DNA from: a virus
Direction: 5' to 3' (one strand)
DNA: 64,000 nt
Virus record (IMG/VR): IMGVR_UViG_3300022602_000001
Positions 28,850 to 53,553 of the stretch are shown piece by piece; the stretch's first letter is position 1; each line of letters begins with the position of its first letter. The translations under genes were made by a program, and so were the position numbers. The notes below the pieces were generated by a model. That model was not told the origin of the DNA. It did not search any database and saw nothing but the letters and a program-made list of their open reading frames with translations.

Positions 28850-29641
28850 ATGCCAGTACTGAACACGTTGCAGAGTTATGGAAATGGTTTCCAAATAAAA
28901 GTGCTGTCCAGCCTATTGAAGCACAAGGAGTTTTTGCAAAACGTCAACGACATACTCAGCACAGACATGTTTGACTCCCCTGCGCACAAGTGGATAGTGT
29001 CCGAGACGCTCAGGTACTACCACAAGTACCACACGACCCCAACCATGGAGTCGCTTCAGGTGGAAGTAAAAAAGATCGACAACGAGATTCTTAAAGTGGG
29101 AGTAATAGACCAGCTCAAGGAGTCCTTGAAGGCAATAAACGACGACAGGGAGTACATAGAGCAGGAGTTTGCAAACTTTTGCAGAAACCAACAGTTGAAG
29201 AACGCAATACTTGAGTCGGTTAAGCTCCTTGAGAAGGGCGAGTACGAGGACATAAGGAGCATAATAAACACGGCCGCAAAGGCCGGTCAGGACAAGACGA
29301 TAGGCCACGAGTACGAAAAGGACCTGGAGACCCGCTACAGGCAGGAGCAGAGGTCGCCTATTCCCACTGCATGGCCCCAGGTGAACGAGCTGCTAATGGG
29401 AGGGCTTGGAGTGGGAGACCTAGGAATCATATTTGGAAATCCTGGAGGCGGAAAGTGCATTGGGCCTAACTCCATAGTAGAAATAGAGTACGAAGAAATA
29501 GGCGTCGATGTGAACAACAACGGAAAGACAACGACCATTTGGTTTGATTCTTTTGCTGAGTTCAACATAGACGGAACGCACATGTGGGGGCACGAAGTAA
29601 AAAAGTTCTTTGAATTTGTTGAGGCCCAAAAATTAAATTAA
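28850..29641 (+). CDS. DnaB-like replicative helicase, N-terminal half fused to split-intein N-fragment
   Basis: Helicase sequence runs to GNPGGGK, then CIGPNSIV (intein block A, Cys1 at 29456); 61-aa IntN then stop. Confidence 0.88.
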   Translation: MPVLNTLQSYGNGFQIKVLSSLLKHKEFLQNVNDILSTDMFDSPAHKWIVSETLRYYHKYHTTPTMESLQVEVKKIDNEILKVGVIDQLKESLKAINDDREYIEQEFANFCRNQQLKNAILESVKLLEKGEYEDIRSIINTAAKAGQDKTIGHEYEKDLETRYRQEQRSPIPTAWPQVNELLMGGLGVGDLGIIFGNPGGGKCIGPNSIVEIEYEEIGVDVNNNGKTTTIWFDSFAEFNIDGTHMWGHEVKKFFEFVEAQKLN

Positions 29642-30059
29642 AAAGTTACATATGCTAAAGACCAGAAAAGTCCAGAGAAAAATTTCAATGGAAAATTTGT
29701 TCATGAAGTTGGCAATAGATCCCAGACCAAACAATGTTAGGCTGATTGATTTTCCCCTAAAGGTGAAGACTCCCCACGGCTACAAACAAATAGTCAATTT
29801 GTTCACCACTGAAAAACAAAAGAGGGTCACAACCTACTTCTCAAATGGAAAAACTCTGACCAGTTCAAACCAGCACTTGCTAAAAGTGGGAGAGGAGTGG
29901 AAAAAAGTCGAAGAGCTGCACAAGGGAGACTATGTGACAACAGAAAAGGGAACAACAAAAATAACAAAAAAAGTGCACCTCAAGAATGACAAAGTCCTCT
30001 ACGACATGTCCGTTGACGAGGTCCACTGTTATTATTCAAACGGGTTGCTCTCGCACAAC
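29456..30059 (+). mobile_element. Atypically split mini-intein (IntN 61 aa, IntC 136 aa) in the helicase Walker A motif
   Basis: Cys1; block B-like LTSSNQHLL; block F VLYDMSV; terminal SHN followed by Ser+1. Confidence 0.88.
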
Positions 30060-30830
30060 TCCTGGTGTTTGATAAATTTGGGAGCAGCAGCAGTTAAGGC
30101 GGGATACACGGTCTGCCACTACACTCTTGAACTGTCGGAGGACTACGTTGGAAAGAGGTATGACGCCATATTTACGGGAATTGATGCTCAGCAGATACAC
30201 CTACACAAGGACAAGGTGGCCGAAGCAATAGAAAAGCTTCCCGGAAAGCTGATCATAAAAGAGTACCCCATGGGAAAGGTTGGACCAAACACCATTGAGT
30301 CCCACATTCAGAAGTGCAGAGACCTCAAGCACCCTCCCAATCTCGTTATAATAGACTACGTGGACCTTTTGAAGAGCAAAACAAGGTCCATAGATCCAAA
30401 GGACGCCATAGATGACGTGTACACTGCGGTGAAGGGGCTGGCAAGAGAGCTAAAAATACCAATATGGACCGTTTCCCAGGTTAATCGCATGGGTTCTAAG
30501 GACGATGTTATTGAGGGAGACAAGGCTGCAGGATCCTACAACAAGATGATGATCGCGGACTTTGCCATGTCTTTGTCAAGAAAACGTCAGGACAAGGTGA
30601 ACGGCACTGGCAGGATCCACATAATGAAGAACAGGTACGGTGGAGATGGAATGACGTACGGTGCAAGAGTAAACACTCATAACGGATCGATTGAAATAAA
30701 CAGCGAAGAAATTGGAGATGAAGATTTAACATTTGACACTGGCCAAAAACAGCCCTTTCAGGGAAAAACAATGTTCACCCTGGACGAGAAGAGCTACCTG
30801 AACAAAAAATTCACAGAGCTGATTGGCTAG
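29652..30830 (+). CDS. Split-intein C-fragment fused to C-terminal half of DnaB-like helicase
   Basis: ...GLLSHN|SWCLINLG, then HYTLELSE, IIDYVDLL, WTVSQVNR, KNRYG helicase motifs. Confidence 0.9.
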   Translation: MLKTRKVQRKISMENLFMKLAIDPRPNNVRLIDFPLKVKTPHGYKQIVNLFTTEKQKRVTTYFSNGKTLTSSNQHLLKVGEEWKKVEELHKGDYVTTEKGTTKITKKVHLKNDKVLYDMSVDEVHCYYSNGLLSHNSWCLINLGAAAVKAGYTVCHYTLELSEDYVGKRYDAIFTGIDAQQIHLHKDKVAEAIEKLPGKLIIKEYPMGKVGPNTIESHIQKCRDLKHPPNLVIIDYVDLLKSKTRSIDPKDAIDDVYTAVKGLARELKIPIWTVSQVNRMGSKDDVIEGDKAAGSYNKMMIADFAMSLSRKRQDKVNGTGRIHIMKNRYGGDGMTYGARVNTHNGSIEINSEEIGDEDLTFDTGQKQPFQGKTMFTLDEKSYLNKKFTELIG

Positions 30831-36607: not shown

Positions 36608-37138
36608 GGTACTTGGTAGGCCTTAGGTTGCAAAAGAAACACTAACCGTTCACCGCAAGGGAACACAAAACTAAAAAAAAATGACTTACACACTGAGACC
36701 ATTTGAACTGGATCCGTTTGATCTTCTGTGGAAGGACCTGCTGGACACCCAATCCCACTTTTCTTCCATCACGCAAAAAGTAACGCACCCCGTGGACATT
36801 TTTGAGACAAAAAAGGGCATTACCATAGAGGTTGCCGCAGTCGGACTTGAGAAGGACGACATAAACATAATCGTCGAGGGGGACCAACTAAAAATAACCT
36901 ACGAAAAACCAAAGGACGAAGAATCCACCGCCCTGTACAGGGGAATAAAGAGGTCGTCGTTCAATCTGAGCTGGAAGATAGCTTCCAAGTTTGACCTTTC
37001 CAAGCTAACGGCTTCCCTGGACAAGGGGCTGCTAATCCTGTCGATACCAGTCGCAGAGGGCAAAGAGCCAAAGAGAGTTGAGATACACACAGCAAAGCAG
37101 CTGTTAAAGGACTAATTTAAAAGAGCCTGCCAAGTACC
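36608..37138 (+). repeat. 14-nt inverted repeat (one G-U pair) flanking hsp20
   Basis: ggtacttggtaggc at 36608-36621 versus gcctgccaagtacc at 37125-37138. Confidence 0.85.
36681..37115 (+). CDS. Small heat-shock protein (Hsp20/alpha-crystallin)
   Basis: PVDI.ET, EVAAVGL.K.DI, YRGI.RSSF, ASLDKGLL.L.IP motifs. Confidence 0.92.
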   Translation: MTYTLRPFELDPFDLLWKDLLDTQSHFSSITQKVTHPVDIFETKKGITIEVAAVGLEKDDINIIVEGDQLKITYEKPKDEESTALYRGIKRSSFNLSWKIASKFDLSKLTASLDKGLLILSIPVAEGKEPKRVEIHTAKQLLKD

Positions 37139-37637: not shown

Positions 37638-39269
37638 ATGAGCACAACAACAAACGTTAGCGGGACAGAACTCAAGGAGAGGCTGCTTTCAGGAATCAAC
37701 AAGCTGAACCATGCGGTGTCTTCCACTCTTGGGCCAGGGGGAAGAACAGTTCTCATCAGGGAGCAGAGCGGCGAGGTGAAAGTCACAAAGGACGGAGTCT
37801 CTGTTGCAAAGTCATTCCACAAGCTGGAGGACGACATAGAGGACCTTGGAGCAACGCTGGTGAAGCAGGTGAGCATAAAGTCTGCAACCGAAGCGGGCGA
37901 CGGCACAACTACGTCCACTCTGCTGGCCACAAGGATTGTGGAAGAGGGACTGAAGAACATAAGACAGGGCACAAACGCAGTCGAGATAAAGATTGCAATT
38001 GACAAGGGCGTGGACGACGTCATAAAGCAGATAAGGAGCACTGCCAAGGAGGTGTCCTCCGAGGACCAAATAAAGCAAATAGCAACAATATCTGGCAACA
38101 ACGACGAGGAGGTCGGAAGCCTGATAGCAGTCGCAATAGAGAAGGTGGGAAGAGAAGGAGTCGTGACGATAGAAGAGTCAAAGACCGGAGAGACCAGCCT
38201 AGAAATAGTGGAGGGAATGCAGTTCGACAGAGGGTACAAGTCCCCCTTCTTTGTAACAAACAACTCCAGCATGACGGCCGGCCTGGAGAACCCATACGTA
38301 CTGCTGTACGATGGAAGAATATCTACCGCAAAGGACGTCCTTGAGTCTCTAACAAAGGCAAACACTGACAACAGGCCTCTGCTGATAATTTCTGAGGACA
38401 TCGGCGACGAGGCACTGGCCACGCTGATCGTGAACAAGATGAGAGGACTAGTTCAGGTGTGCGCCGTAAGGGCTCCAGACTTTGGGGACAGAAAGACCCT
38501 GATACTCGAGGACATAGCAGTTCTCACAGGGGGCCAAGTCATATCGAAGGACAAAGGCCACAAGCTTGACAAACTCACTCCTCAACAGTTGAGTGGATTC
38601 TTGGGCTCGGCCCGCCTGGCAACCGTGTCAAAAGAGGAGACGACCATAGTAGACGGAAGGGGAGACGAGAGCAAGATTGCTGCCAGGGCCGAAGAGATAA
38701 AGGACCAGATCGACAAGGCCACCTCTTTCTACGAGAAGGAGAAGCTGCAGGAGAGGCTGGGCAAGCTCGTCGGCGGAGTGGCAATAATAAACGTTGGAGG
38801 AAACTCTGACATAGAGATAAGGGAGAAGAAAGACAGGGTGGAGGACGCTCTGTACGCAACAAAGGCCGCCCTTGCGGATGGAATAGTTCCCGGCGGAGGC
38901 GCAGCTCTCTACAGCGCGTGCAGTGCCATTGAGCCGAGCGACTCGGACAGCAGGAGCACTGCAATTGCAAAGGAGGTGCTAAAAAAAGCCCTGCAGTCTC
39001 CGTTCAAGACCATACTCTCTAACGCAGGCGTTGAGAACTGGTACGAGTTCGTTCCAAACGCGGAGGAGGGGACAATATACAACGCAAAGAGCCACAGGAT
39101 GGTGAATGCCCTTGAGGCTGGAATAATAGACCCTGCAAAGGTGGTGATCACGGCCCTGAAGAATGCTGCCTCTGTGGCAGGAACAATTTTGACGACAGAG
39201 TCTGTTGTCTACGAAAAAAAATCAAAGGACGAAAAGGAAGAGCCAAATCCAATGGCTGGACTGATGTAA
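37638..39269 (+). CDS. groEL: Chaperonin GroEL
   Basis: TLGP.GR, TKDGVSVAK, AGDGTTT, EGMQFDRGY.SPFF, GIVPGGG motifs. Confidence 0.97.
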   Translation: MSTTTNVSGTELKERLLSGINKLNHAVSSTLGPGGRTVLIREQSGEVKVTKDGVSVAKSFHKLEDDIEDLGATLVKQVSIKSATEAGDGTTTSTLLATRIVEEGLKNIRQGTNAVEIKIAIDKGVDDVIKQIRSTAKEVSSEDQIKQIATISGNNDEEVGSLIAVAIEKVGREGVVTIEESKTGETSLEIVEGMQFDRGYKSPFFVTNNSSMTAGLENPYVLLYDGRISTAKDVLESLTKANTDNRPLLIISEDIGDEALATLIVNKMRGLVQVCAVRAPDFGDRKTLILEDIAVLTGGQVISKDKGHKLDKLTPQQLSGFLGSARLATVSKEETTIVDGRGDESKIAARAEEIKDQIDKATSFYEKEKLQERLGKLVGGVAIINVGGNSDIEIREKKDRVEDALYATKAALADGIVPGGGAALYSACSAIEPSDSDSRSTAIAKEVLKKALQSPFKTILSNAGVENWYEFVPNAEEGTIYNAKSHRMVNALEAGIIDPAKVVITALKNAASVAGTILTTESVVYEKKSKDEKEEPNPMAGLM

Positions 39270-48387: not shown

Positions 48388-48482
48388 TTTGGCTGAAAGT
48401 ACAGTGAGAAGACTGGGCGGATTTTGGCCCGCGATTGTAGAGCTTACGCTCCCGCACGCCAATGCGGGAAAATTTAGCCAAA
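48388..48482 (+). ncRNA. Putative multi-branch structured RNA
   Basis: 10-bp closing stem tttggctgaa/tttagccaaa enclosing four hairpins. Confidence 0.5.
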
Positions 48483-48570
48483 CTAAAAAGATAAATTTTT
48501 CTTACAAAAGAATGTTGAGTACTTTTACTATGTAACAACAAAACAAGCATATTTATAAACAAACAGCAGA

Positions 48571-48723
48571 ATGAGGCACACAACATCACACAAATCAAAT
48601 TGGAAGGCAGAATCCGTTATAAGAAATCAGCCGGAGTATTGCTTTATGCCCATTCAAAGTAACGACGGGATGAGCAGAGTCTCAAAGAGTTCGGAAAGTA
48701 ATGAAGAGGACGATTGTAAGTAA
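48571..48723 (+). CDS. Putative 50-aa leader peptide of the tRNA island (not in ORF track)
   Basis: ATG 14 nt after ATATTTAT; ORF ends 20 nt before a terminator. Confidence 0.55.
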   Translation: MRHTTSHKSNWKAESVIRNQPEYCFMPIQSNDGMSRVSKSSESNEEDDCK

Positions 48724-48743
48724 ATTATAAATCTCAAATCATG

Positions 48744-48776
48744 AAAAGCCCCGAACCTAAAAAATTCGGGGTTTTT
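48744..48776 (+). terminator. Intrinsic terminator immediately before the first tRNA
   Basis: aaaagccccgaa-cctaaaaaa-ttcggggttttt. Confidence 0.8.
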
Positions 48777-48786
48777 AATTTTTTCC

Positions 48787-48859
48787 GGTGCTCAAGCTAA
48801 CTTGGTAGAAGCGTAAGTTTGAAAAACTTAAGGACTCGGGTCGAAACCGAGGAGCACCA
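48787..48859 (+). tRNA. tRNA-Phe(GAA)
   Basis: ggtgctc/gagcacc acceptor; taagt-ttGAAaa-actta anticodon arm. Confidence 0.85.
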
Positions 48860-48915
48860 CAAAAAAACAAACATGAAAAAAATAACAATGCATTAGGTAC
48901 CAAACCTAATGTAAA

Positions 48916-49098
48916 GTGAAAGTAAAAAAACTAAAAAATTCATCCTGCAGCAGAGAATACACAATAAGGATGAAGGGCTACAAAGTGTACTGTACAGTGT
49001 GCAACAGACGAGCAGGAGTGTTCAATGCATACTGTGGAAAGGAGAGCAAAAAACAAAACAGAAACTGGAAAAACTACAGAAAAACAAAATGGAAGTGA
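48916..49098 (+). CDS. Small basic protein with CxxC
   Basis: C-terminal RNWKNYRKTKWK motif typical of small phage proteins. Confidence 0.55.
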   Translation: MKVKKLKNSSCSREYTIRMKGYKVYCTVCNRRAGVFNAYCGKESKKQNRNWKNYRKTKWK

Positions 49099-49148
49099 AA
49101 AACTATAAACGAAAGCAGTAGGCTCCCCCTTGACAGAGGGAGCAGAAC

Positions 49149-49222
49149 TCCCTCTTAACTCAGCGGTCAGAGTACTATACTTTTAATATAGGAGTCGCTC
49201 GGTTCAAATCCGGCAGGGGAAC
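49149..49222 (+). tRNA. tRNA-Lys(TTT)
   Basis: ctata-ctTTTaa-tatag anticodon arm; ggttcaaatcc T-arm; imperfect acceptor. Confidence 0.8.
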
Positions 49223-49256
49223 ACAGTTGATCTTTGACATAACAAAACCAAGAAAC

Positions 49257-49328
49257 ACGTCTTAGCATAAGAAATGCAGCAGGCCTCCAAAACCTTGCAT
49301 GGACAGAGTTTGATTCTCTGAAGACGTG
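49257..49328 (+). tRNA. tRNA-Trp(CCA)
   Basis: acgtctt/aagacgt acceptor; ctCCAaa loop; short D-arm. Confidence 0.75.
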
Positions 49329-49334
49329 CAGCAC

Positions 49335-49408
49335 GCTCTAGTAGCTCAATTGAAGAGAGCATTTGACTACGAATCAAAAGGTTGAACGTTTGAGTCGTTC
49401 CTAGAGCC
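49335..49408 (+). tRNA. tRNA-Arg(ACG)
   Basis: gctctag/ctagagc acceptor; tttga-ctACGaa-tcaaa. Confidence 0.88.
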
Positions 49409-49420
49409 AATTTTTTAAAT

Positions 49421-49493
49421 AGTCGAGTGGCCGAGAGGATTAAGGCACAGGGCTGCAAACCCTGCCACGTCAGTTTGACTCTGACCTCGACTT
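49421..49493 (+). tRNA. tRNA-Cys(GCA)
   Basis: agtcgag/ctcgact acceptor, U73; caggg-ctGCAaa-ccctg. Confidence 0.88.
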
Positions 49494-49549
49494 CTAAAAT
49501 AAATTTTTTTGTTTGATTGATTGTTTGTACATTTATCTGACTCTAATAT

Positions 49550-49622
49550 CTAGGTGTGGCCGAGTTGGTAAGGCACTAGCTTTGGGAGCTAGACCAAGCA
49601 GGATCGTCACCTGTCGCCTAGA
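49550..49622 (+). tRNA. tRNA-Pro(TGG)
   Basis: ctaggtg/cgcctag acceptor; ctagc-ttTGGga-gctag. Confidence 0.85.
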
Positions 49623-49630
49623 CAAAATTT

Positions 49631-49703
49631 GGGGATGAAGCTCTAGTGGATGAGCGTGTGCTTTGCAAGCACGATGGTGCGGTTTCGAGTACCGCCTTCT
49701 CCA
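49631..49703 (+). tRNA. tRNA-Ala(TGC)
   Basis: ggggatg/cttctcc acceptor with G3-U70; tgtgc-ttTGCaa-gcacg. Confidence 0.85.
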
Positions 49704-49708
49704 CCCTC

Positions 49709-49783
49709 GGGCGCTTCGCTTAGTTGGTTTTAAAGCCCTTGCCTTACAAGCAAGAGATCATTCGTTCGATTCGGAGCGCGGCA
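49709..49783 (+). tRNA. tRNA-Val(TAC), degenerate 3' acceptor (possible pseudo-tRNA)
   Basis: cttgc-ctTACaa-gcaag and ttcgatt T-loop present; acceptor pairs poorly. Confidence 0.55.
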
Positions 49784-49801
49784 ACAGTGCTTTTTGAAAA
49801 T

Positions 49802-49873
49802 TGCCTGATGGTGTAATGGTAAACATTCCAGATTTTGGATCTGGGGATTTTAGTTCGAGTCTAAATCGGGCAA
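49802..49873 (+). tRNA. tRNA-Gln(TTG)
   Basis: tgcctga/tcgggca acceptor; ccaga-ttTTGga-tctgg. Confidence 0.88.
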
Positions 49874-49875
49874 CT

Positions 49876-50226
49876 ATGGAAATCAAATTTTACAAAGAGA
49901 AAAACGACCTTTGGTACGTAGACCTTCCAGAGTACATAGAGTCGGGAGGCACAAAGGAGGACTGTCAAATGGTGGCAGGAGCGGACGACTGGTTGGACGT
50001 GTTGTCCCAGGGAGAAAGCAGGGTGGTTCTCGAAATCCAAACGGTCCCATTCGACGGAGCAAACTCCCTAACCATGGACGAGCTTCTAACAGATGCCTTT
50101 GGATACGGCGCCTACTACAAAGTGGAAAAGTACAACGGCGTGGACTATCCAGACCTTTCAATTTGGCTGTGCCCAGTGACAGTCTACGTGTTCGGAGAGT
50201 ATCCAAAGACAATCTACTACAGGTAG
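49876..50226 (+). CDS. DUF6717-like hypothetical protein
   Basis: WYVDLPEY, MVAGAD..LD, WLCPVT.YVFGEYPK.IY; start after tRNA-Gln. Confidence 0.75.
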   Translation: MEIKFYKEKNDLWYVDLPEYIESGGTKEDCQMVAGADDWLDVLSQGESRVVLEIQTVPFDGANSLTMDELLTDAFGYGAYYKVEKYNGVDYPDLSIWLCPVTVYVFGEYPKTIYYR

Positions 50227-50231
50227 TTATT

Positions 50232-50315
50232 GGAAGAGTAATTCTAGCGGCCTAGAATCCAGTCTTGAAAACTGTGAGTGCCTCAGGGCATGGGGATCGA
50301 CACCTCACTTTTCCG
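50232..50315 (+). tRNA. tRNA-Ser(TGA)
   Basis: ggaagag/cttttcc acceptor, G73; ctTGAaa loop; long variable arm. Confidence 0.82.
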
Positions 50316-50317
50316 CT

Positions 50318-50388
50318 GGCCTAGAAGCTTTAAGGTGAAGCGCAAGTTTGTGGCACTTGAGAATCCGGATCGGTACCGGGCTTGGCCC
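50318..50388 (+). tRNA. tRNA-His(GTG)
   Basis: caagt-ttGTGgc-acttg; C discriminator. Confidence 0.8.
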
Positions 50389-50404
50389 CCCCCCCCACAG
50401 AAAT

Positions 50405-50491
50405 GGATGGTGAGCAGAGGGTTCTGCAGCTGGTTTGCTAAACCGGCGATCGTTCAAAAAGGCGGTTGAATTTCGATTATTCCGCCATCCG
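50405..50491 (+). tRNA. tRNA-Ser(GCT)
   Basis: ggatggt/gccatcc acceptor; ttGCTaa loop; long variable arm. Confidence 0.8.
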
Positions 50492-50506
50492 CTGAGTTTA
50501 AAAAAT

Positions 50507-50580
50507 GCTCATCTAGCTCAACTGGTTGGAGCACCCGCCTGATACGCGGGAGGTTGTTGGCTCGAATCCAACGATGAGCA
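50507..50580 (+). tRNA. tRNA-Ile(GAT)
   Basis: gctcatc/gatgagc acceptor; cccgc-ctGATac-gcggg. Confidence 0.88.
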
Positions 50581-50627
50581 CAGGTCAGTTTGCTATTTCT
50601 GCGTGGAGTTAAAAAATAGCTGTTTTA

Positions 50628-50699
50628 GCCTTCGTCGTATAAAGGTCAGTACGAAAGACTGTTAATCTTTTTGTCCAAGTTCGAGTCTTGGCGAAGGCG
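50628..50699 (+). tRNA. tRNA-Asn(GTT)
   Basis: gccttcg/cgaaggc acceptor; aaaga-ctGTTaa-tcttt. Confidence 0.9.
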
Positions 50700-50868
50700 C
50701 TAAAAATAAAATGTGAAGACTAAAAAAATAAACTTTTTTCATTCATCCGCATTGTATACTTTTACTCTATAATAGCAACTAATAGATCTTTGAAAATAAA
50801 GACAATAAACTTACACGTAAGGGATTGTGAGCCAGCCGAAAGGTTGCAATTACTCACTTTCCCAGGAA

Positions 50869-50986
50869 ATTTTGATGAATAGCAAGGACCAGCGTTACTT
50901 CGCGTGCATGGTGCACAATTTTTATGTTAAAAAAATACAGAGGTTCAATTCCTCCTGAAACGCTACCAATTTTCTTTCATCTAAAT
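50869..50986 (+). ncRNA. Y-RNA-like scaffold copy 1 with tRNA-like arms
   Basis: gatgaa-T-ag/ct-ttcatc bulged stem and agcgtt/aacgct inner stem enclosing a hairpin, a 7-nt-loop hairpin (atGTTaa) and a T-arm (gagg-ttcaatt-cctc). Confidence 0.65.
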
Positions 50987-50987
50987 C

Positions 50988-51060
50988 GTTCCCGTCGTCT
51001 AATGGTCAGGACAGCCCCCTTTCACGGGGCAAATTTCGGTTCGAGTCCGTGCGTGGAACA
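50988..51060 (+). tRNA. tRNA-Glu(TTC)
   Basis: gcccc-ctTTCac-ggggc; ggttcgagtcc T-arm. Confidence 0.85.
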
Positions 51061-51069
51061 CAAAAATTC

Positions 51070-51143
51070 GGAGTAGTGGTTGAATGGTTTACAACACCGG
51101 CTTGTCGCGCCGTGAGGTGGGGGTTCGAGTCCCCCTTATTCCG
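51070..51143 (+). tRNA. tRNA-Asp(GTC)
   Basis: ggagtag/ttattcc acceptor, G73; ttGTCgc loop. Confidence 0.85.
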
Positions 51144-51160
51144 CCTTGACTTTTTTAAAC

Positions 51161-51237
51161 GTATTCGTATAGGCTCTGTCTCATAAACAGTTGAAACCTT
51201 AACAGGTTACATGAGAGTTCGATTCTCTCCGAATACA
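51161..51237 (+). tRNA. D-armless tRNA-like RNA, anticodon CAT, long variable arm
   Basis: gtattcg/cgaatac acceptor; only 7 nt where the D-arm belongs; ctgt-ctCATaa-acag; gagag-ttcgatt-ctctc. Confidence 0.7.
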
Positions 51238-51262
51238 CTCTGGACTTTTTGAAATAAAGACA

Positions 51263-51397
51263 TTAGTCATAGTAATAGAAAGCGTTTCATCGTGTGGGTT
51301 CGATTCCCATTTTTTGCGACTGCAAAAATAGCCAAATGGTTAAGGCACCAAATTCGTAATTTGTAAAACAAACACGCTCCTAAAATTTCTTGACTAA
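51263..51397 (+). ncRNA. Y-RNA-like scaffold copy 2 containing a circularly permuted tRNA (anticodon CGT)
   Basis: T-arm, loop-closed acceptor stem, D-arm and anticodon arm in that order, inside a ttagtca-T-ag/ct-tgactaa stem. Confidence 0.8.
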
Positions 51398-51410
51398 ATT
51401 ATTTGATCAC

Positions 51411-51483
51411 AGCTGGTGGGAGGTAAGGTATCTCGTTGGTCTCATAAGCCAAAATAACCCCGTTCGATTCGGGGACGCAGCAA
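51411..51483 (+). tRNA. tRNA-Met(CAT), initiator-like
   Basis: ttggt-ctCATaa-gccaa; ccccg-ttcgatt-cgggg; mismatched first acceptor pair. Confidence 0.72.
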
Positions 51484-51502
51484 CTAAAGTGAAGTAAAGT
51501 AC

Positions 51503-51757
51503 AATCTAGAGCAGCAGTACCCATAGGGCAACATTGCGTACCCCTGAATTGACAGGCCGTTTATTGAAACAGATAAGCGTGGTGGGATTTCTACCTGCGA
51601 ATGGCCAGTCGCTACTACTGGTGTCTGAGTGGGTGTAATTAACCTTTCCTCCCGAAGTGGGAGGCTTACTGTACGTGCTGGTACAGACAGGGATAATACC
51701 TTGATGGAAGGAGCCGGTTAATTACCGTATTACCGTAGCAGGCTGCTGCTCTAGATT
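51503..51757 (+). ncRNA. Unidentified 255-nt structured ncRNA
   Basis: Perfect 15-bp terminal stem aatctagagcagcag/ctgctgctctagatt; internal 10-bp stem and multiple hairpins; flanked by tRNAs. Confidence 0.75.
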
Positions 51758-51758
51758 T

Positions 51759-51830
51759 GGCGCCGTAGTTCAAAGGCAGAACATTTGGCTCATATCCAAA
51801 AGGTTGAGATCTCAGAATTCTCCGGCGCCA
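51759..51830 (+). tRNA. tRNA-Met/Ile2(CAT)
   Basis: ggcgccg/cggcgcc acceptor; tttgg-ctCATat-ccaaa; atypical T-loop. Confidence 0.8.
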
Positions 51831-51956
51831 CGAAGAGCATGAAGGCCACATGATCGTAGATCCTCTCAGCCTCTCAACGATGCACACTGTAGAGCCAGAC
51901 CGTAGGCTGGATGAGTTGACAACTTACTCACTGACTTTAGAAAAGTTGTAAATTTT

Positions 51957-52029
51957 GCCTGAATAACTCAATTGGTAGAGTATCTCATTTGTAATGAGAA
52001 GGTTGCGGATTCGATTTCTGCTTCAGGCT
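51957..52029 (+). tRNA. tRNA-Thr(TGT)
   Basis: gcctgaa/ttcaggc acceptor; tctca-ttTGTaa-tgaga. Confidence 0.9.
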
Positions 52030-52057
52030 CAAAAATAGCAGCATTGCTGCTTTTCAT

Positions 52058-52132
52058 GCGACAGTCGTATAATGGTCATTACTCCATCCTTCCAAGTTGG
52101 AGATGAAGGTTCGATTCCTTTCTGTCGCTCCA
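52058..52132 (+). tRNA. tRNA-Gly(TCC)
   Basis: gcgacag/ctgtcgc acceptor with encoded tCCA; ctTCCaa loop. Confidence 0.9.
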
Positions 52133-52158
52133 GTGGACTTTTTTGAAATTGGTCAATT

Positions 52159-52232
52159 GATCCCATAGCTCAACTGAACAGAGCAATTGCCTTCTAAGCA
52201 ATAGGTTTCCAGTTTGAATCTGGATGGGATCA
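52159..52232 (+). tRNA. tRNA-Arg(TCT)
   Basis: gatccca/tgggatc acceptor; attgc-ctTCTaa-gcaat. Confidence 0.9.
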
Positions 52233-52247
52233 CTTTAAAAATGAAAC

Positions 52248-52574
52248 ATGACAGCAAGAGAGTTGAAGGACCACATTCTAAATTACATGACGGCAGAGGA
52301 GGCTCTTGAGAGGCTCATTGCGTCCACTGTGAAAAATTTAAACGAAGAAGAGGAAAGTTCCCATGAAAGAATCTACCTCGAGGAGGACCAGGAATCTGAA
52401 TTAGACGAGACAGACACCGAATTGCCCAACTACAATTCTCCCTACTTTGAAATAATTACTGCAGCAAAGAAGCTGGGCTGGGACATAGCGATTCAAGGGG
52501 ACAAGGACTTTGTGAGAGGGATATCGATAGGCACGGCTGAGTACTTGGACGAGAACATAAAACATACAACATGA
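52248..52574 (+). CDS. Acidic hypothetical protein
   Basis: 108-aa ORF inside the tRNA island. Confidence 0.65.
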   Translation: MTARELKDHILNYMTAEEALERLIASTVKNLNEEEESSHERIYLEEDQESELDETDTELPNYNSPYFEIITAAKKLGWDIAIQGDKDFVRGISIGTAEYLDENIKHTT

Positions 52575-52780
52575 TAATTTTATTCGTTTACCACATAATC
52601 GCTGTTGCGTATTGCATGTGGAGAATTCTAAAGAGGTACAAGAAGTCCTCCTTGGACGGAGTCATAGGAACCAGCCCTGGGTTGGACACCTTGGCGGTGG
52701 TTTTTTTGGCGCCGCTGCTGATGCCCCTGGATCTTCTGATCACTCTGGCAGGGCTCAAAAAGAAGAAGGAGTCCGCATAA
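52571..52780 (+). CDS. Small two-TM membrane protein
   Basis: Two hydrophobic stretches; ATGA overlap with the upstream gene. Confidence 0.65.
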   Translation: MIILFVYHIIAVAYCMWRILKRYKKSSLDGVIGTSPGLDTLAVVFLAPLLMPLDLLITLAGLKKKKESA

Positions 52781-52792
52781 ACTTTTTAAAAA

Positions 52793-52921
52793 CTGGCGGG
52801 TGGTGAAAAGCTACATGGTGGCTGGGTAAACACACCTCATAGTCTCTGAGGCGCGGAACAGGAAATAGATTGCAATTGCCGTTGAATCCCCGCTTGTTGG
52901 TTCAAGCCCAACCTCGCCAGC
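52793..52921 (+). ncRNA. Oversized tRNA-like RNA (8-bp acceptor, expanded D-loop and variable arm)
   Basis: ctggcggg/ctcgccag; cctca-tagtctc-tgagg; gttgg-ttcaagc-ccaac. Confidence 0.7.
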
Positions 52922-52924
52922 GAC

Positions 52925-52999
52925 GCTCTTGTAGCCCAATTGGAAGGAGGCAACAGACTTAGGATCTGTGCAGTATCAGTTTGAATTTGATCATGAGCA
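52925..52999 (+). tRNA. tRNA-Leu(TAG) with short variable loop
   Basis: gctcttg/catgagc acceptor, A73; acaga-ctTAGga-tctgt; 5-nt variable region. Confidence 0.82.
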
Positions 53000-53091
53000 C
53001 TGAACTTTTTAAGCCACAACAAAAAACAATTCTCTAAAATTCAACATGGAGCAAGTCGTGCCTTTATATTTATTCTAAAAAGCTTTGTCTC

Positions 53092-53553
53092 ATGGATAGA
53101 ACATTTAAAACACTGAGCAACAGCGCAGTTGTGGATTTGGTGCCCTACACAAAGCAGTACATTGAAAATTTTCCCGATACTGAAATACTAATAGGGTGCG
53201 ACTCTCAAAACAGAAAAACTGAGACCGTCTATGCAATAGTTGTTGGATTTTACAAGCCAGGAAAGGGCGCGCATGTGGTGTACTCAAGATTCAAAAATCA
53301 AAGAGAGAAGGACAACGTGGGAAGGCTTTTGAACGAGGTGTGGAACTCAGTTCAGGTTGCTGAAGTTTTAAAAAATGAAGTTGGAATCCACACAAAGTGG
53401 ATAGACATAGACCTAAATCCCGACCCCAAGTACAAGTCGAACGCGGCGCTGTCCAGCGCAGTGGGAATAGTAACAGGAATGGGGTACAACGTCAGGCACA
53501 AGGGCAATTCTCCAATAATGACGTACGCAGCAGACTCTCTCGTAAAATTTTAA
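53092..53553 (+). CDS. RNase H-like YkuK-family protein
   Basis: IGCDSQ, RLLNEVW.S, IDIDLN, YAAD motifs. Confidence 0.8.
   Translation: MDRTFKTLSNSAVVDLVPYTKQYIENFPDTEILIGCDSQNRKTETVYAIVVGFYKPGKGAHVVYSRFKNQREKDNVGRLLNEVWNSVQVAEVLKNEVGIHTKWIDIDLNPDPKYKSNAALSSAVGIVTGMGYNVRHKGNSPIMTYAADSLVKF

Follow-up and report, generated by a model that had tools for sequence, protein, structure and literature searches.

What function does a dense island of tRNA genes serve in the genome of a lake phage, and how should the unusual tRNA-shaped RNAs within it be understood? The island lies in the window analyzed here, a 64,000-nt stretch of the virus record IMGVR_UViG_3300022602_000001 (IMG/VR), and the original prediction described it as an integrated countermeasure against host attack on translation, combining a sensor (the leader), replacements (the tRNAs), and decoys or repair adaptors (the tRNA mimics). 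Comparison of the sequence with those of related phages leads us to favor, with moderate confidence, a reading in which the island is the window phage's version of a lineage-wide tRNA operon, with small ORFs between the tRNA genes, a YkuK-type nuclease gene after them, and a leader-peptide attenuator at the entrance; within this reading, the odd RNAs would be a mixed set (diverged tRNA orthologues, a truncated giant-armed RNA, two scaffolded RNAs, and one orphan) and no designed panel.

Composition of the tRNA operon

The window contains a tRNA operon of ~23 genes with a small gene and a stop signal at its entrance. ARAGORN with default settings identifies 17 tRNAs at 48787-53000. Rfam adds a CAT tRNA at 51759-51830 (53 bits) and weak tRNA matches at 51412-51482 and 51161-51237, while relaxed ARAGORN adds Trp-CCA (49257-49329), Ser-TGA (50232-50316), and Ser-GCT (50405-50492). 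The resulting 23 tRNA-type genes, of which 18 are firm and 5 are weak (the weak ones matching tRNAs of related phages), cover 19 amino acids, in good agreement with the initial count of ~22 tRNAs for 19 amino acids without Tyr. No tRNA-Tyr is found in the window array by ARAGORN or Rfam; in relatives, Tyr-GTA lies between Asn and Glu. Gene order of the arrays is kept in more than 50 related loci. The firm genes, found by both ARAGORN and Rfam unless stated otherwise, are as follows:

48787..48860, + strand: tRNA-Phe (GAA)
49149..49222, + strand: tRNA-Lys (TTT)
49335..49408, + strand: tRNA-Arg (ACG)
49421..49494, + strand: tRNA-Cys (GCA)
49550..49623, + strand: tRNA-Pro (TGG)
49630..49706, + strand: tRNA-Ala (TGC)
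49713..49783, + strand: tRNA-Val (TAC); ARAGORN, low Rfam score (30 bits)
49802..49874, + strand: tRNA-Gln (TTG)
50318..50390, + strand: tRNA-His (GTG); ARAGORN, Rfam 35 bits
50507..50581, + strand: tRNA-Ile (GAT)
50628..50700, + strand: tRNA-Asn (GTT)
50988..51059, + strand: tRNA-Glu (TTC); ARAGORN, Rfam 36 bits
51070..51145, + strand: tRNA-Asp (GTC)
51759..51830, + strand: tRNA-Met type gene (CAT); Rfam, 53 bits
51957..52030, + strand: tRNA-Thr (TGT)
52058..52132, + strand: tRNA-Gly (TCC)
52159..52233, + strand: tRNA-Arg (TCT)
52925..53000, + strand: tRNA-Leu (TAG); class-I length (76 nt), without a long variable arm

The short form of tRNA-Leu (TAG) also occurs in the related loci L013, L015, L046, and L030. 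A replacement role for the island tRNAs is plausible and agrees with existing knowledge. The boxA-like spacers that had been proposed were not confirmed, since matches to the boxA consensus, with as many as 3 mismatches allowed, show no enrichment (35 versus 27.7 expected) and all those in the island have 3 mismatches.

Four ORFs lie in or beside the array:

48916..49098, + strand: small Cys-rich ORF (60 aa) within the array
49876..50226, + strand: DUF6717 protein gene within the array (PF20475, E = 3e-31)
52571..52780, + strand: small hydrophobic ORF (69 aa)
53092..53553, + strand: YkuK/DUF458 RNase H-like protein gene (PF04308, E = 1.3e-17)

The Cys-rich ORF has no family match in Pfam or PHROG and a 58% identical counterpart in L001, and the DUF6717 gene has homologues in L001 and L002. 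The 69-aa ORF, which has no Pfam family match and, judged by eye, may encode a membrane protein, is always found in or beside the array (tblastn matches in more than 50 loci). The YkuK gene stands right after the island, as had been noted; it is located 3' of the array in more than 100 related loci, and three unrelated phages have such a gene inside or next to their tRNA arrays.

Divergent tRNAs and other structured RNAs

The remaining RNA elements of the island include the five weak tRNA-type genes and several structured RNAs:

49257..49329, + strand: variant tRNA-Trp (CCA); relaxed ARAGORN only
50232..50316, + strand: divergent tRNA-Ser (TGA) with an atypical T loop; relaxed ARAGORN, below Rfam reporting
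50405..50492, + strand: divergent tRNA-Ser (GCT); relaxed ARAGORN, in the relatives' Ser-GCT slot
50874..50981, + strand: scaffolded tRNA-like RNA E1; fold, and homologues in L003, L004, L006, and L008
51161..51237, + strand: CAT-anticodon tRNA-like gene that lacks a D arm and has a long variable arm; Rfam 31 bits
51263..51397, + strand: scaffolded RNA E2; fold, with a scaffold in common with E1 (read from sequence)
51412..51484, + strand: CAT-anticodon tRNA-like gene with a degenerate acceptor stem; Rfam 31 bits
51503..51757, + strand: orphan 255-nt structured element with a 16-bp perfect closing stem; MFE -101 kcal/mol
52793..52921, + strand: truncated member of a giant-armed tRNA-Asp-like family; nhmmer family, alignment A8

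The variant tRNA-Trp has a short D arm, a longer variable region, and a C31-A39 mismatch; L067 and L096 each carry a single Trp gene, with which it shares 81-82% identity, and covariation is seen in the acceptor stem. The Ser-TGA gene aligns with the relatives' Ser-TGA in the same slot. The CAT gene at 51412..51484 is 88% identical to L019:2282-2341 and has canonical Met genes as homologues in L018 and L022 (with a covarying T stem), and the one at 51161..51237 sits in the relatives' first-Met slot, although no relative has such a form. Several of the supposed mimics (Trp, two Ser, and CAT) are orthologues of ordinary tRNAs.

The prediction of at least four non-canonical tRNA-shaped RNAs, three of them larger, holds (50874-50981, 51161-51237, 51263-51397, and 52793-52921). 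The last of these belongs to a family of ~38 distinct members (nhmmer) that is absent from Rfam; in alignment A8 of this family, 98% of cells are paired, slid controls reach 46-49%, and compensatory changes are present in 30 of the 40 pairs. The window copy has an 8-bp acceptor, a D-loop hairpin, a normal T arm, and a GTC loop without U33 and without a purine at 37. It shares with the family the 8-bp acceptor, the 3-bp D stem, the GTC loop with U at 37, the variable-arm internal-loop motifs, the T arm, and the C discriminator; it differs in having A at position 33 and, like the L030 copy, in that its long variable arm ends in a short palindromic hairpin only, without the family's apical domain.

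In its predicted fold, E1 consists of an outer stem and internal loop around a tRNA-shaped body, in which a hairpin replaces the D arm, the anticodon stem is entirely A/T, and the T arm is normal. Pairwise identity of E1 to its homologues is 85% including flanks (93% mean column identity in the four-way alignment), with a compensatory change in the T stem and differing anticodon loops. The E2 scaffold encloses a permuted tRNA (T arm, closed acceptor hairpin, D arm, and anticodon hairpin). L031, L032, and L034 contain a partial homologue of E2, in which the acceptor hairpin covaries. The 255-nt element, which bears out the expectation of further structured RNAs, folds far better than shuffles (z = -4.3) and has no Rfam match, homologue, or second copy.

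Some of these features would also fit an ordinary constitutive tRNA cluster that is decaying in this phage, with the odd elements being pseudogenes or scars of tandem-tRNA recombination and the micro-ORF at the entrance being a small protein gene with its own terminator. The window tRNAs have lower scores than the orthologous genes (30 bits for Val, 35 for His, and 36 for Glu, while Trp and both Ser fall under the reporting level); Tyr, Leu-TAA, and tmRNA of the relatives are absent; the giant-armed RNA has lost its apical domain; and a hybrid tRNA fragment occupies the E2 site in L031, while tandem copies can yield a 3'-half followed by a 5'-half. However, E1 is 85% identical including flanks across phages whose YkuK proteins are 75% identical, and the variant Trp, with its covarying acceptor stem, is the only Trp gene in three phages. 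Together with the leader comparison below, these observations make decay an unlikely general explanation, even though the weak attenuator features of the window would suit it.

Leader ORF and terminator at the entrance

The entrance of the island has the predicted layout of a leader ORF with a terminator, and this layout is conserved in relatives:

48549..48560, + strand: candidate promoter element, an A/T-rich motif 5-25 nt upstream of the leader start codon
48571..48723, + strand: leader micro-ORF (50 codons; 19 amino-acid types, Leu absent), with homologous peptides at the same place in relatives
48685..48705, + strand: weak candidate antiterminator segment, homologous in position to the relatives' segment
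48749..48784, + strand: intrinsic-terminator hairpin and T-run (-13.8 kcal/mol), ending 3 nt before tRNA-Phe

The hairpin proper occupies 48749-48771, with the T-run next to it. The order of leader ORF, terminator, and first tRNA recurs in 24 distinct related phages from two clades (with Phe as the first tRNA in one clade and Asn in the other), with leader ORFs of 30-53 codons and a terminator hairpin that is present in all relatives and differs in sequence. In most of the 14 clade-1 leaders (11 noted by eye), this A/T-rich motif stands directly ahead of the ATG, and it may be a promoter element. The window micro-ORF has no Pfam or PHROG family match.

The leaders share common descent, so the counts that follow do not represent independent events. 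Of the 24 leader peptides, 22 include every one of the 20 amino acids (0.3-3% expected by chance in simulation), and the set is complete ahead of the antiterminator segment in 22 of 24. The full set of 20 is present in 24 of 759 control small ORFs, at least 17 of which are themselves members of the leader family. Relative to their own arrays, which encode 20-24 anticodon species, the leaders sample 19-24, a result matched by random gene segments in 0-4 of 2000 trials for seven of nine relatives. A segment near the 3' end of the relatives' leader ORF covaries with the terminator 5' strand in the manner of an antiterminator; the corresponding duplex is equaled by few shuffles (up to 17/1000 in 11 of 14 clade-1 leaders and up to 63/1000 in all 10 clade-2 leaders) and, in 21 of the 24 leaders (exceptions: L016, L040, and L077), its end is 5-19 nt ahead of the stop codon's last nucleotide. 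Synonymous codon choice is fixed at conserved leader residues. Since the leader peptide contains a conserved motif, it could also act as a small protein.

The comparison supports the leader as a sensor of translation, making this the most strongly backed part of the original prediction; it holds for the relatives, but the window copy is weak on each count. The window leader samples 18 of 21 array anticodons, as do random segments in 232 of 2000 trials, and the duplex between 48685-48705 and 48736-48758 (-10.6 kcal/mol) is not above shuffles (856/2000). The switch appears degraded or altered in the window copy. It also counts against the sensor reading that the window leader contains Tyr, for which the array has no tRNA, and lacks Leu, for which the array has one.

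We infer the direction and physiological trigger of the switch from its arrangement in relatives. The short ORF would be translated while RNA polymerase nears the terminator just before the first tRNA. All amino acids and nearly all anticodon species of the array are represented in the first 30-41 codons, and the codons that follow contain a copy of the terminator 3' strand. Fast ribosomes would cover this copy, allowing the terminator to form and keeping the array low, whereas a slow decoding step or failed translation would let the copy pair with the terminator 5' strand, with read-through into the tRNAs. tRNA production would thus probably rise when translation slows, and phage tRNA supply would follow demand through negative feedback. 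A decaying cluster leaves unexplained the all-20 leaders, the anticodon rostering, and the covarying antiterminator in 23 relatives.

Less probable still is the integrated anti-defence system, in which phage tRNAs stand in for host tRNAs that anticodon nucleases have cleaved, and tRNA-like RNAs serve as nuclease decoys or repair adaptors. Phage tRNAs are known to counter tRNA-cutting defences, several of the tRNA-like RNAs are conserved and covarying and therefore functional, the giant-armed RNA keeps a GTC loop unfit for decoding, and a translation-sensing leader would respond to tRNA cleavage too; however, the panel varies among close relatives, several proposed mimics are simply the Trp, Ser, and Met genes of the lineage, none of the RNAs has a feature that connects it with a specific nuclease, and nothing was found linking the island to PrrC- or PARIS-type defences. 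The suggested gene search recovered no Ro60/TROVE, RtcB, or CCA-adding enzyme in the window ORFs or in a complete 274-kb relative, and no RNA ligase family in that relative or in the window ORFs (general Pfam scan), leaving the decoy or repair-adaptor role unsupported.

Comparison with known systems

Among the structured RNAs, E2 resembles the bacterial YrlA Y RNAs (PMC4201824) in its T arm, closed acceptor-like hairpin, and D arm, and in having its 5' and 3' ends paired in a stem. It differs in retaining a separate anticodon hairpin and in having no Rfam match beyond tRNA; in addition, no Ro60 gene occurs near the island or in one complete relative, and the 5'-strand motif linked to Ro60 binding (PMC4201824) was not found by eye in the 5' strands of E1 and E2.

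Leader attenuators of amino-acid operons include trpL, hisL, pheL, and the multivalent ilv and thr leaders. What the phage leader has in common with them (e.g., the pheL leader-peptide attenuator; PMC3082878) is a short ORF for translation, an intrinsic terminator placed ahead of the genes under control, and a second pairing option that would keep the terminator from forming when ribosomes fall behind. Whereas those attenuators regulate biosynthetic enzymes, the phage leader precedes tRNAs, and it has no enrichment in a single amino acid, instead using each of the 20 in one or a few codons and rostering the array anticodons. In contrast to trp, its antiterminator is located within the ORF and upstream of the stop codon, so that occlusion by ribosomes would depend on close coupling of translation and transcription, and there are three segments rather than four, so that the absence of translation should also give read-through. 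Slowed leader translation likewise relieves a downstream terminator in drug-sensing attenuators of the mef/mel type (PMC4335068), where the trigger is a ribosome with bound drug at a particular peptide; the phage leader shows no obvious arrest motif, and the codons it uses suggest that tRNA supply is what is sensed. Like the phage tRNA clusters surveyed previously (PMC6409571), the island has its tRNA genes, over 20 in number, on a single strand, with small ORFs between them, and it is distinguished from those clusters by a conserved gated entrance and by its fixed companions, the conserved non-decoding tRNA-like RNAs and the YkuK-type nuclease gene.

The tRNA array and its lineage

The window, in which every long ORF lies on the + strand, comes from a large myovirus and encodes tail sheath, baseplate, gp32-like and RecA-like proteins, a family A DNA polymerase, ribonucleotide reductase, thymidylate synthase, chaperonin and endolysin. 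The chaperonin is of the GroEL type, and the phage also encodes an Hsp20 (37638-39269 and 36681-37115, respectively) and a DnaB-type helicase in two ORFs (28850-29641 and 29652-30830), the second of which opens with a HINT/intein-like domain followed by the helicase C-terminal domain and therefore points to an intein-bearing or split helicase. None of 50,697 deposited phages is a close relative of the window, and megablast and blastn searches of these records with the tRNA island and its 255-nt element returned single-tRNA matches only, or nothing. The YkuK protein used as a query retrieved 27 viral and 80 metagenomic loci with 48-95% identity, many of them from lakes, going by recognisable sample names. 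The gene order of the window's array is kept in the arrays of these relatives, which allows the odd elements to be assessed from their location and by alignment. The following features of the island are discussed:

48571-48723, leader micro-ORF of 50 codons, directly 5' of the array
48749-48771, terminator hairpin followed by a T-run, 3 nt 5' of tRNA-Phe
50874-50981, tRNA-like RNA E1
51263-51397, tRNA-like RNA E2
51503-51757, 255-nt structured element
52571-52780, ORF for a hydrophobic protein of ~69 aa
52793-52921, window copy of a giant-armed tRNA-Asp-like RNA

The expected content of about 22 tRNAs for 19 amino acids, without Tyr, agrees closely with the 23 tRNA-type genes for 19 amino acids, Tyr again absent, that were found. 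ARAGORN at default settings predicted 17 tRNAs (48787-53000) and with relaxed settings added Trp-CCA, Ser-TGA and Ser-GCT, and Rfam contributed a 53-bit CAT tRNA (51759-51830) and weak matches at 51412-51482 and 51161-51237. The RF00005 gathering threshold of 29 bits is reached by 20 genes of the island; in the search at E <= 10 it was not reached by the Trp element (49257-49329), the two Ser genes (50232-50316 and 50405-50492), E1, E2 or the giant-armed RNA. Over the island, Rfam at E <= 10 gave tRNA matches only, with no tmRNA, GOLLD, group I intron, RNase P or Y RNA. Tyr and Leu-TAA, often together with a phage tmRNA, are found in the arrays of the relatives; all three are missing from the window, and the window's tRNAs score lower overall than those of the relatives.

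A panel of tRNA mimics had been proposed for the island. Several of its members align with ordinary tRNAs; roughly half of the panel are thus diverged orthologues of these, and the part of the proposal that stands is the presence of genuine tRNA-like RNAs. The Trp element is 81-82% identical to the sole Trp genes of two relatives (L067 and L096), with which it has in common a short D arm and a longer variable region, and its acceptor stem covaries; it is a variant tRNA-Trp and most likely a functional one. The two Ser genes occupy the relatives' Ser slots and can be aligned with normal Ser genes. The element at 51412-51484 is homologous to canonical Met genes (loci L018 and L022) with a covarying T stem; like the L019 counterpart, to which it is 88% identical, it has a degenerate acceptor stem. 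In the element at 51161-51237 the D arm has been lost and a long variable arm acquired, a form with no counterpart among the relatives.

Other variation was observed among the arrays. The tRNA-Leu (TAG) of the window (52925-53000) and of L013, L015, L046 and L030 measures 74-76 nt, a class-I length, and is without a long variable arm; other relatives have the usual 82-85-nt form. The unusual anticodons ATC (Asp) and TAT (Ile) occur in the close relatives L003, L004, L006 and L008 (e.g., L004:1282-1355 and 1668-1741). Phage tmRNA genes with varied tag peptides are present in many relatives, within or next to the array (L003:6455-6850, L004:685-1081, L009:7397-7822, L012:6821-7096, L023:1630-2005, L032:2068-2496 and L041:8946-9331), none being found in the window, and three relatives carry a GOLLD RNA (Rfam 264-303 bits) just 5' of their arrays (L019:3218-3628, L016:3930-4342 and L023:3775-4184), which the window also lacks. 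In the closest relative, L030 (95% identity in YkuK), ~750 nt that are absent from the window are inserted between tRNA-Leu and the YkuK gene (L030:238-986). Directly after the window's tRNA-His, 11 C residues follow in a row (50386-50396), which may be real or an assembly artefact.

Leader ORF, terminator and candidate switch

The leader and terminator noticed at the entrance of the array are not peculiar to the window, since homologous ORFs are present in 23 other phages. These were recognised by reading the regions 5' of tRNA-Phe in the relatives and with a degenerate DNA pattern; tblastn with the leader peptide gave a false negative. Clade 1 (14 distinct phages, including the window's) has an ORF of 39-53 codons followed by a spacer, a terminator hairpin of differing sequence, a T-run and then tRNA-Phe. 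The very divergent clade 2 (10 phages) has the same layout before tRNA-Asn, with nine ORFs of 39-53 codons and one of 30 (L077). The terminator is kept in all relatives, with compensating changes.

The composition of the leader peptides is unusual. All 20 amino acids are present in 22 of the 24; in a simulation using the window's own composition, a single peptide is complete with a chance of 0.3% at 39 residues and 2.9% at 53. Among distinct control small ORFs of equal length in the loci, 24/759 were complete for all 20, and at least 17 of those 24 were themselves leaders. Conserved leader residues have fixed synonymous codons. When anticodon coverage was scored under strict wobble rules against each leader's own array, seven of nine relatives tested sampled 24/24, 24/24, 23/23, 23/24, 21/22, 19/20 and 19/20 of the anticodon species, compared with an average of 13-18 anticodons for random gene segments of equal length, which reached the observed value in 0-4 of 2000 trials.

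Near the end of the ORF lies a putative antiterminator segment that can form a duplex with the terminator's 5' strand, and in 22/24 leaders the set of 20 amino acids is complete before this segment starts, usually by a few codons. In 21/24 leaders the segment stops 5-19 nt short of the stop codon's end, and its duplex (-13 to -23 kcal/mol) is equal to or stronger than the terminator itself. The pairing is found, with covariation, in 21/23 relatives, and the sequence of the antiterminator changes in step with that of the terminator. Shuffled sequences pair as well in at most 17/1000 cases for 11 of the 14 clade-1 leaders and in at most 63/1000 cases for all 10 clade-2 leaders.

The idea that the leader acts as a sensor thus fares differently in the lineage, where complete leaders, anticodon coverage and covarying pairing all speak for it, and in the window, whose own copy is weak. 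The window's leader contains 19 amino acids and no Leu; it samples 18 of 21 anticodons, a value that random segments reach in 232/2000 trials and that is not significant, and the antiterminator pairing at the homologous place (-10.6 kcal/mol) is no better than in shuffles. By these sequence measures the window's candidate switch is the weakest of the 24. The weak leader, the missing Tyr, Leu-TAA and tmRNA, the low tRNA scores and the shortened giant-armed RNA together suggest that in the window's phage the system of the lineage has been remodelled or has partly decayed.

Signals for transcription were also sought. An A/T-rich conserved motif lies 5-25 nt 5' of the leader start codon; sigma-70 promoter scans gave no excess over shuffles, and a Bacteroidota-type promoter pattern gave 6 matches versus 2.4 expected, just one of them usefully placed. 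The boxA-like spacers of the original prediction did not hold up (35 matches versus 27.7 expected, those in the island all with 3 mismatches). A 10-nt motif with similar flanks occurs in two A/T-rich gaps, one before the leader (48520-48529) and one before E1 (50757-50766); the exact repeat is not enriched in the window, and the second copy may mark an internal promoter. A GC-rich stretch after the upstream ORF (48404-48465), 81% identical to L015:199-260, may be a conserved RNA or a terminator 5' of the leader promoter.

tRNA-like RNAs and the YkuK gene

The giant-armed family, to which the RNA at 52793-52921 belongs, is absent from Rfam, and an HMM built from three copies found ~38 distinct members in more than 50 loci. 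Its members have an 8-bp acceptor stem, a D-like stem of 3 bp with an optional D-loop hairpin, a 7-nt loop with GTC and U at position 37, a structured variable arm of 45-90 nt whose internal loops bear conserved motifs and whose apex is a palindromic hairpin, and a normal T arm, and they show covariation; the discriminator is C, and CCA is not encoded. In the alignment of 25 sequences (A8), 98% of cells are paired versus 46-49% with slid partners, and compensatory changes affect 30/40 pairs versus 7-15 in the slid controls. The apical domain is missing from the window and L030 copies. A genome-wide search pattern proved too loose, with 4 of 120 true among the matches listed; three of these are short contigs from MAGs that bear the titles Bacteroidetes, Bacteroidia and Cytophagales, and the fourth is L223. 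The apex of the arm is a perfect 6-10-nt palindrome in the members read, different in sequence in each (A8 columns about 126-140) and kept as 8 nt in the window, and might serve as a loop that pairs with itself (dimerising) or as a site at the level of DNA. The gene of the ~69-aa hydrophobic protein, which belongs to no known family, lies in or beside the arrays of more than 50 loci throughout the lineage, often directly 5' of the giant-armed RNA.

E1 and E2 are built on a common scaffold, which consists of an outer stem, an internal loop that is asymmetric and bears identical short motifs in both, and the same inner helix of 5-6 bp. The tRNA-shaped body inside the scaffold of E1 has its parts in the normal order. 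Together with its flanks, E1 shares 85% identity with elements of L003, L004, L006 and L008; there is a compensatory change in the T stem, and the anticodon loop differs. In E2 the scaffold surrounds a tRNA whose parts follow one another as T arm, closed acceptor hairpin, D arm and anticodon hairpin, and in a partial homologue (L031, L032 and L034) the acceptor hairpin is kept by compensating changes and fused to a broken tRNA-Thr-like piece. E2 may be the scar of tandem tRNA genes. It was rejected as a Y RNA: its module order is that of bacterial YrlA (PMC4201824), with the acceptor-like hairpin between T arm and D arm, and it lacks the other two of three Y RNA features, as no Ro60 (TROVE) neighbour occurs in the window ORFs or in the complete relative G001, and the Ro60-linked motif (PMC4201824) is absent, by eye, from the 5' strands of E1 and E2.

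Further structured RNAs had been expected in the island, and the 255-nt element does fold far better than shuffles on both strands, purely thermodynamic evidence for a putative structured RNA. It has no homologue, Rfam match or second copy; a hairpin pattern derived from it found chance matches only in IMG/VR, and RNAalifold on the relatives' Met-to-Met gaps gave no common fold. An origin as a MITE was dismissed, there being no second copy of the terminal repeat.

A role of the mimics as decoys or repair adaptors found no support in the partner genes that were searched for. Pfam scans of 50 window ORFs detected no TROVE (Ro60), RtcB, RNA ligase or polynucleotide kinase (Pnkp/Rnl), or CCA-adding domains, and TROVE, RtcB, PolyA_pol and RNA_ligase are likewise absent from G001 (274 kb, 26 tRNAs in one cluster), a relative and not the window's own genome. 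The identification of the YkuK gene was confirmed by a PF04308 match (64.5 bits versus a Pfam cut-off of 25). The family is a predicted RNase H1-like endonuclease without tested function (PMC3985635). Outside the window's lineage, a YkuK gene is embedded in the tRNA array of a Leptolyngbya phage, adjoins a peptidyl-tRNA hydrolase gene between tRNAs in a Ruegeria phage and, in a Pseudomonas phage, is 1.4 kb away from tRNA genes. It is reasonable to infer that YkuK may handle tRNA or tRNA-like RNA.

A possible meter of tRNA supply

Phage tRNA arrays are usually viewed as passive codon-usage aids or as anti-defence spares. The most likely working of the candidate switch is as follows. A ribosome keeping pace as the polymerase transcribes the terminator would cover the antiterminator segment, so that the terminator would form and the array would not be made. 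With a ribosome stalled at any earlier codon, or with no ribosome, the antiterminator segment would be free to pair, and transcription would run into the tRNAs. Since the array's own tRNAs read the codons of the leader, what the array produces would feed back on its own synthesis.

The wider reading is put forward tentatively, its chances being judged a little under even: the lineage would possess a "tRNA-supply meter" with a terminator/antiterminator switch, in which a shortfall of any single tRNA (through host tRNA decay, starvation or defence nucleases) turns the whole array on and ample supply turns it off, the conserved, non-decoding tRNA-like RNAs and the YkuK nuclease being working parts of the same operon. 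In such a meter, each amino acid and each tRNA species of the array would be represented in the leader ORF by one codon or a few. A leader that samples all 20 amino acids and the anticodons of its array would sense decoding capacity in general, and the model of when phage tRNAs are produced is testable. Conserved RNAs that resemble tRNAs and are unable to decode normally, together with an uncharacterised RNase H-like protein that accompanies tRNA arrays in unrelated phages, offer ways into unexplored RNA biology.

No description of such control was found in the literature searched, most subscription journals lying outside the search. The candidate switch of the window's lineage has the same working principle as the trp-, his- and ilv-type attenuators and the drug-sensing leader attenuators (PMC4335068), and through it attenuation of the trp type, so far a matter of amino-acid genes, would reach tRNA genes as well. 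Unlike those known attenuators, it would control tRNA genes, and through a leader complete for all amino acids.
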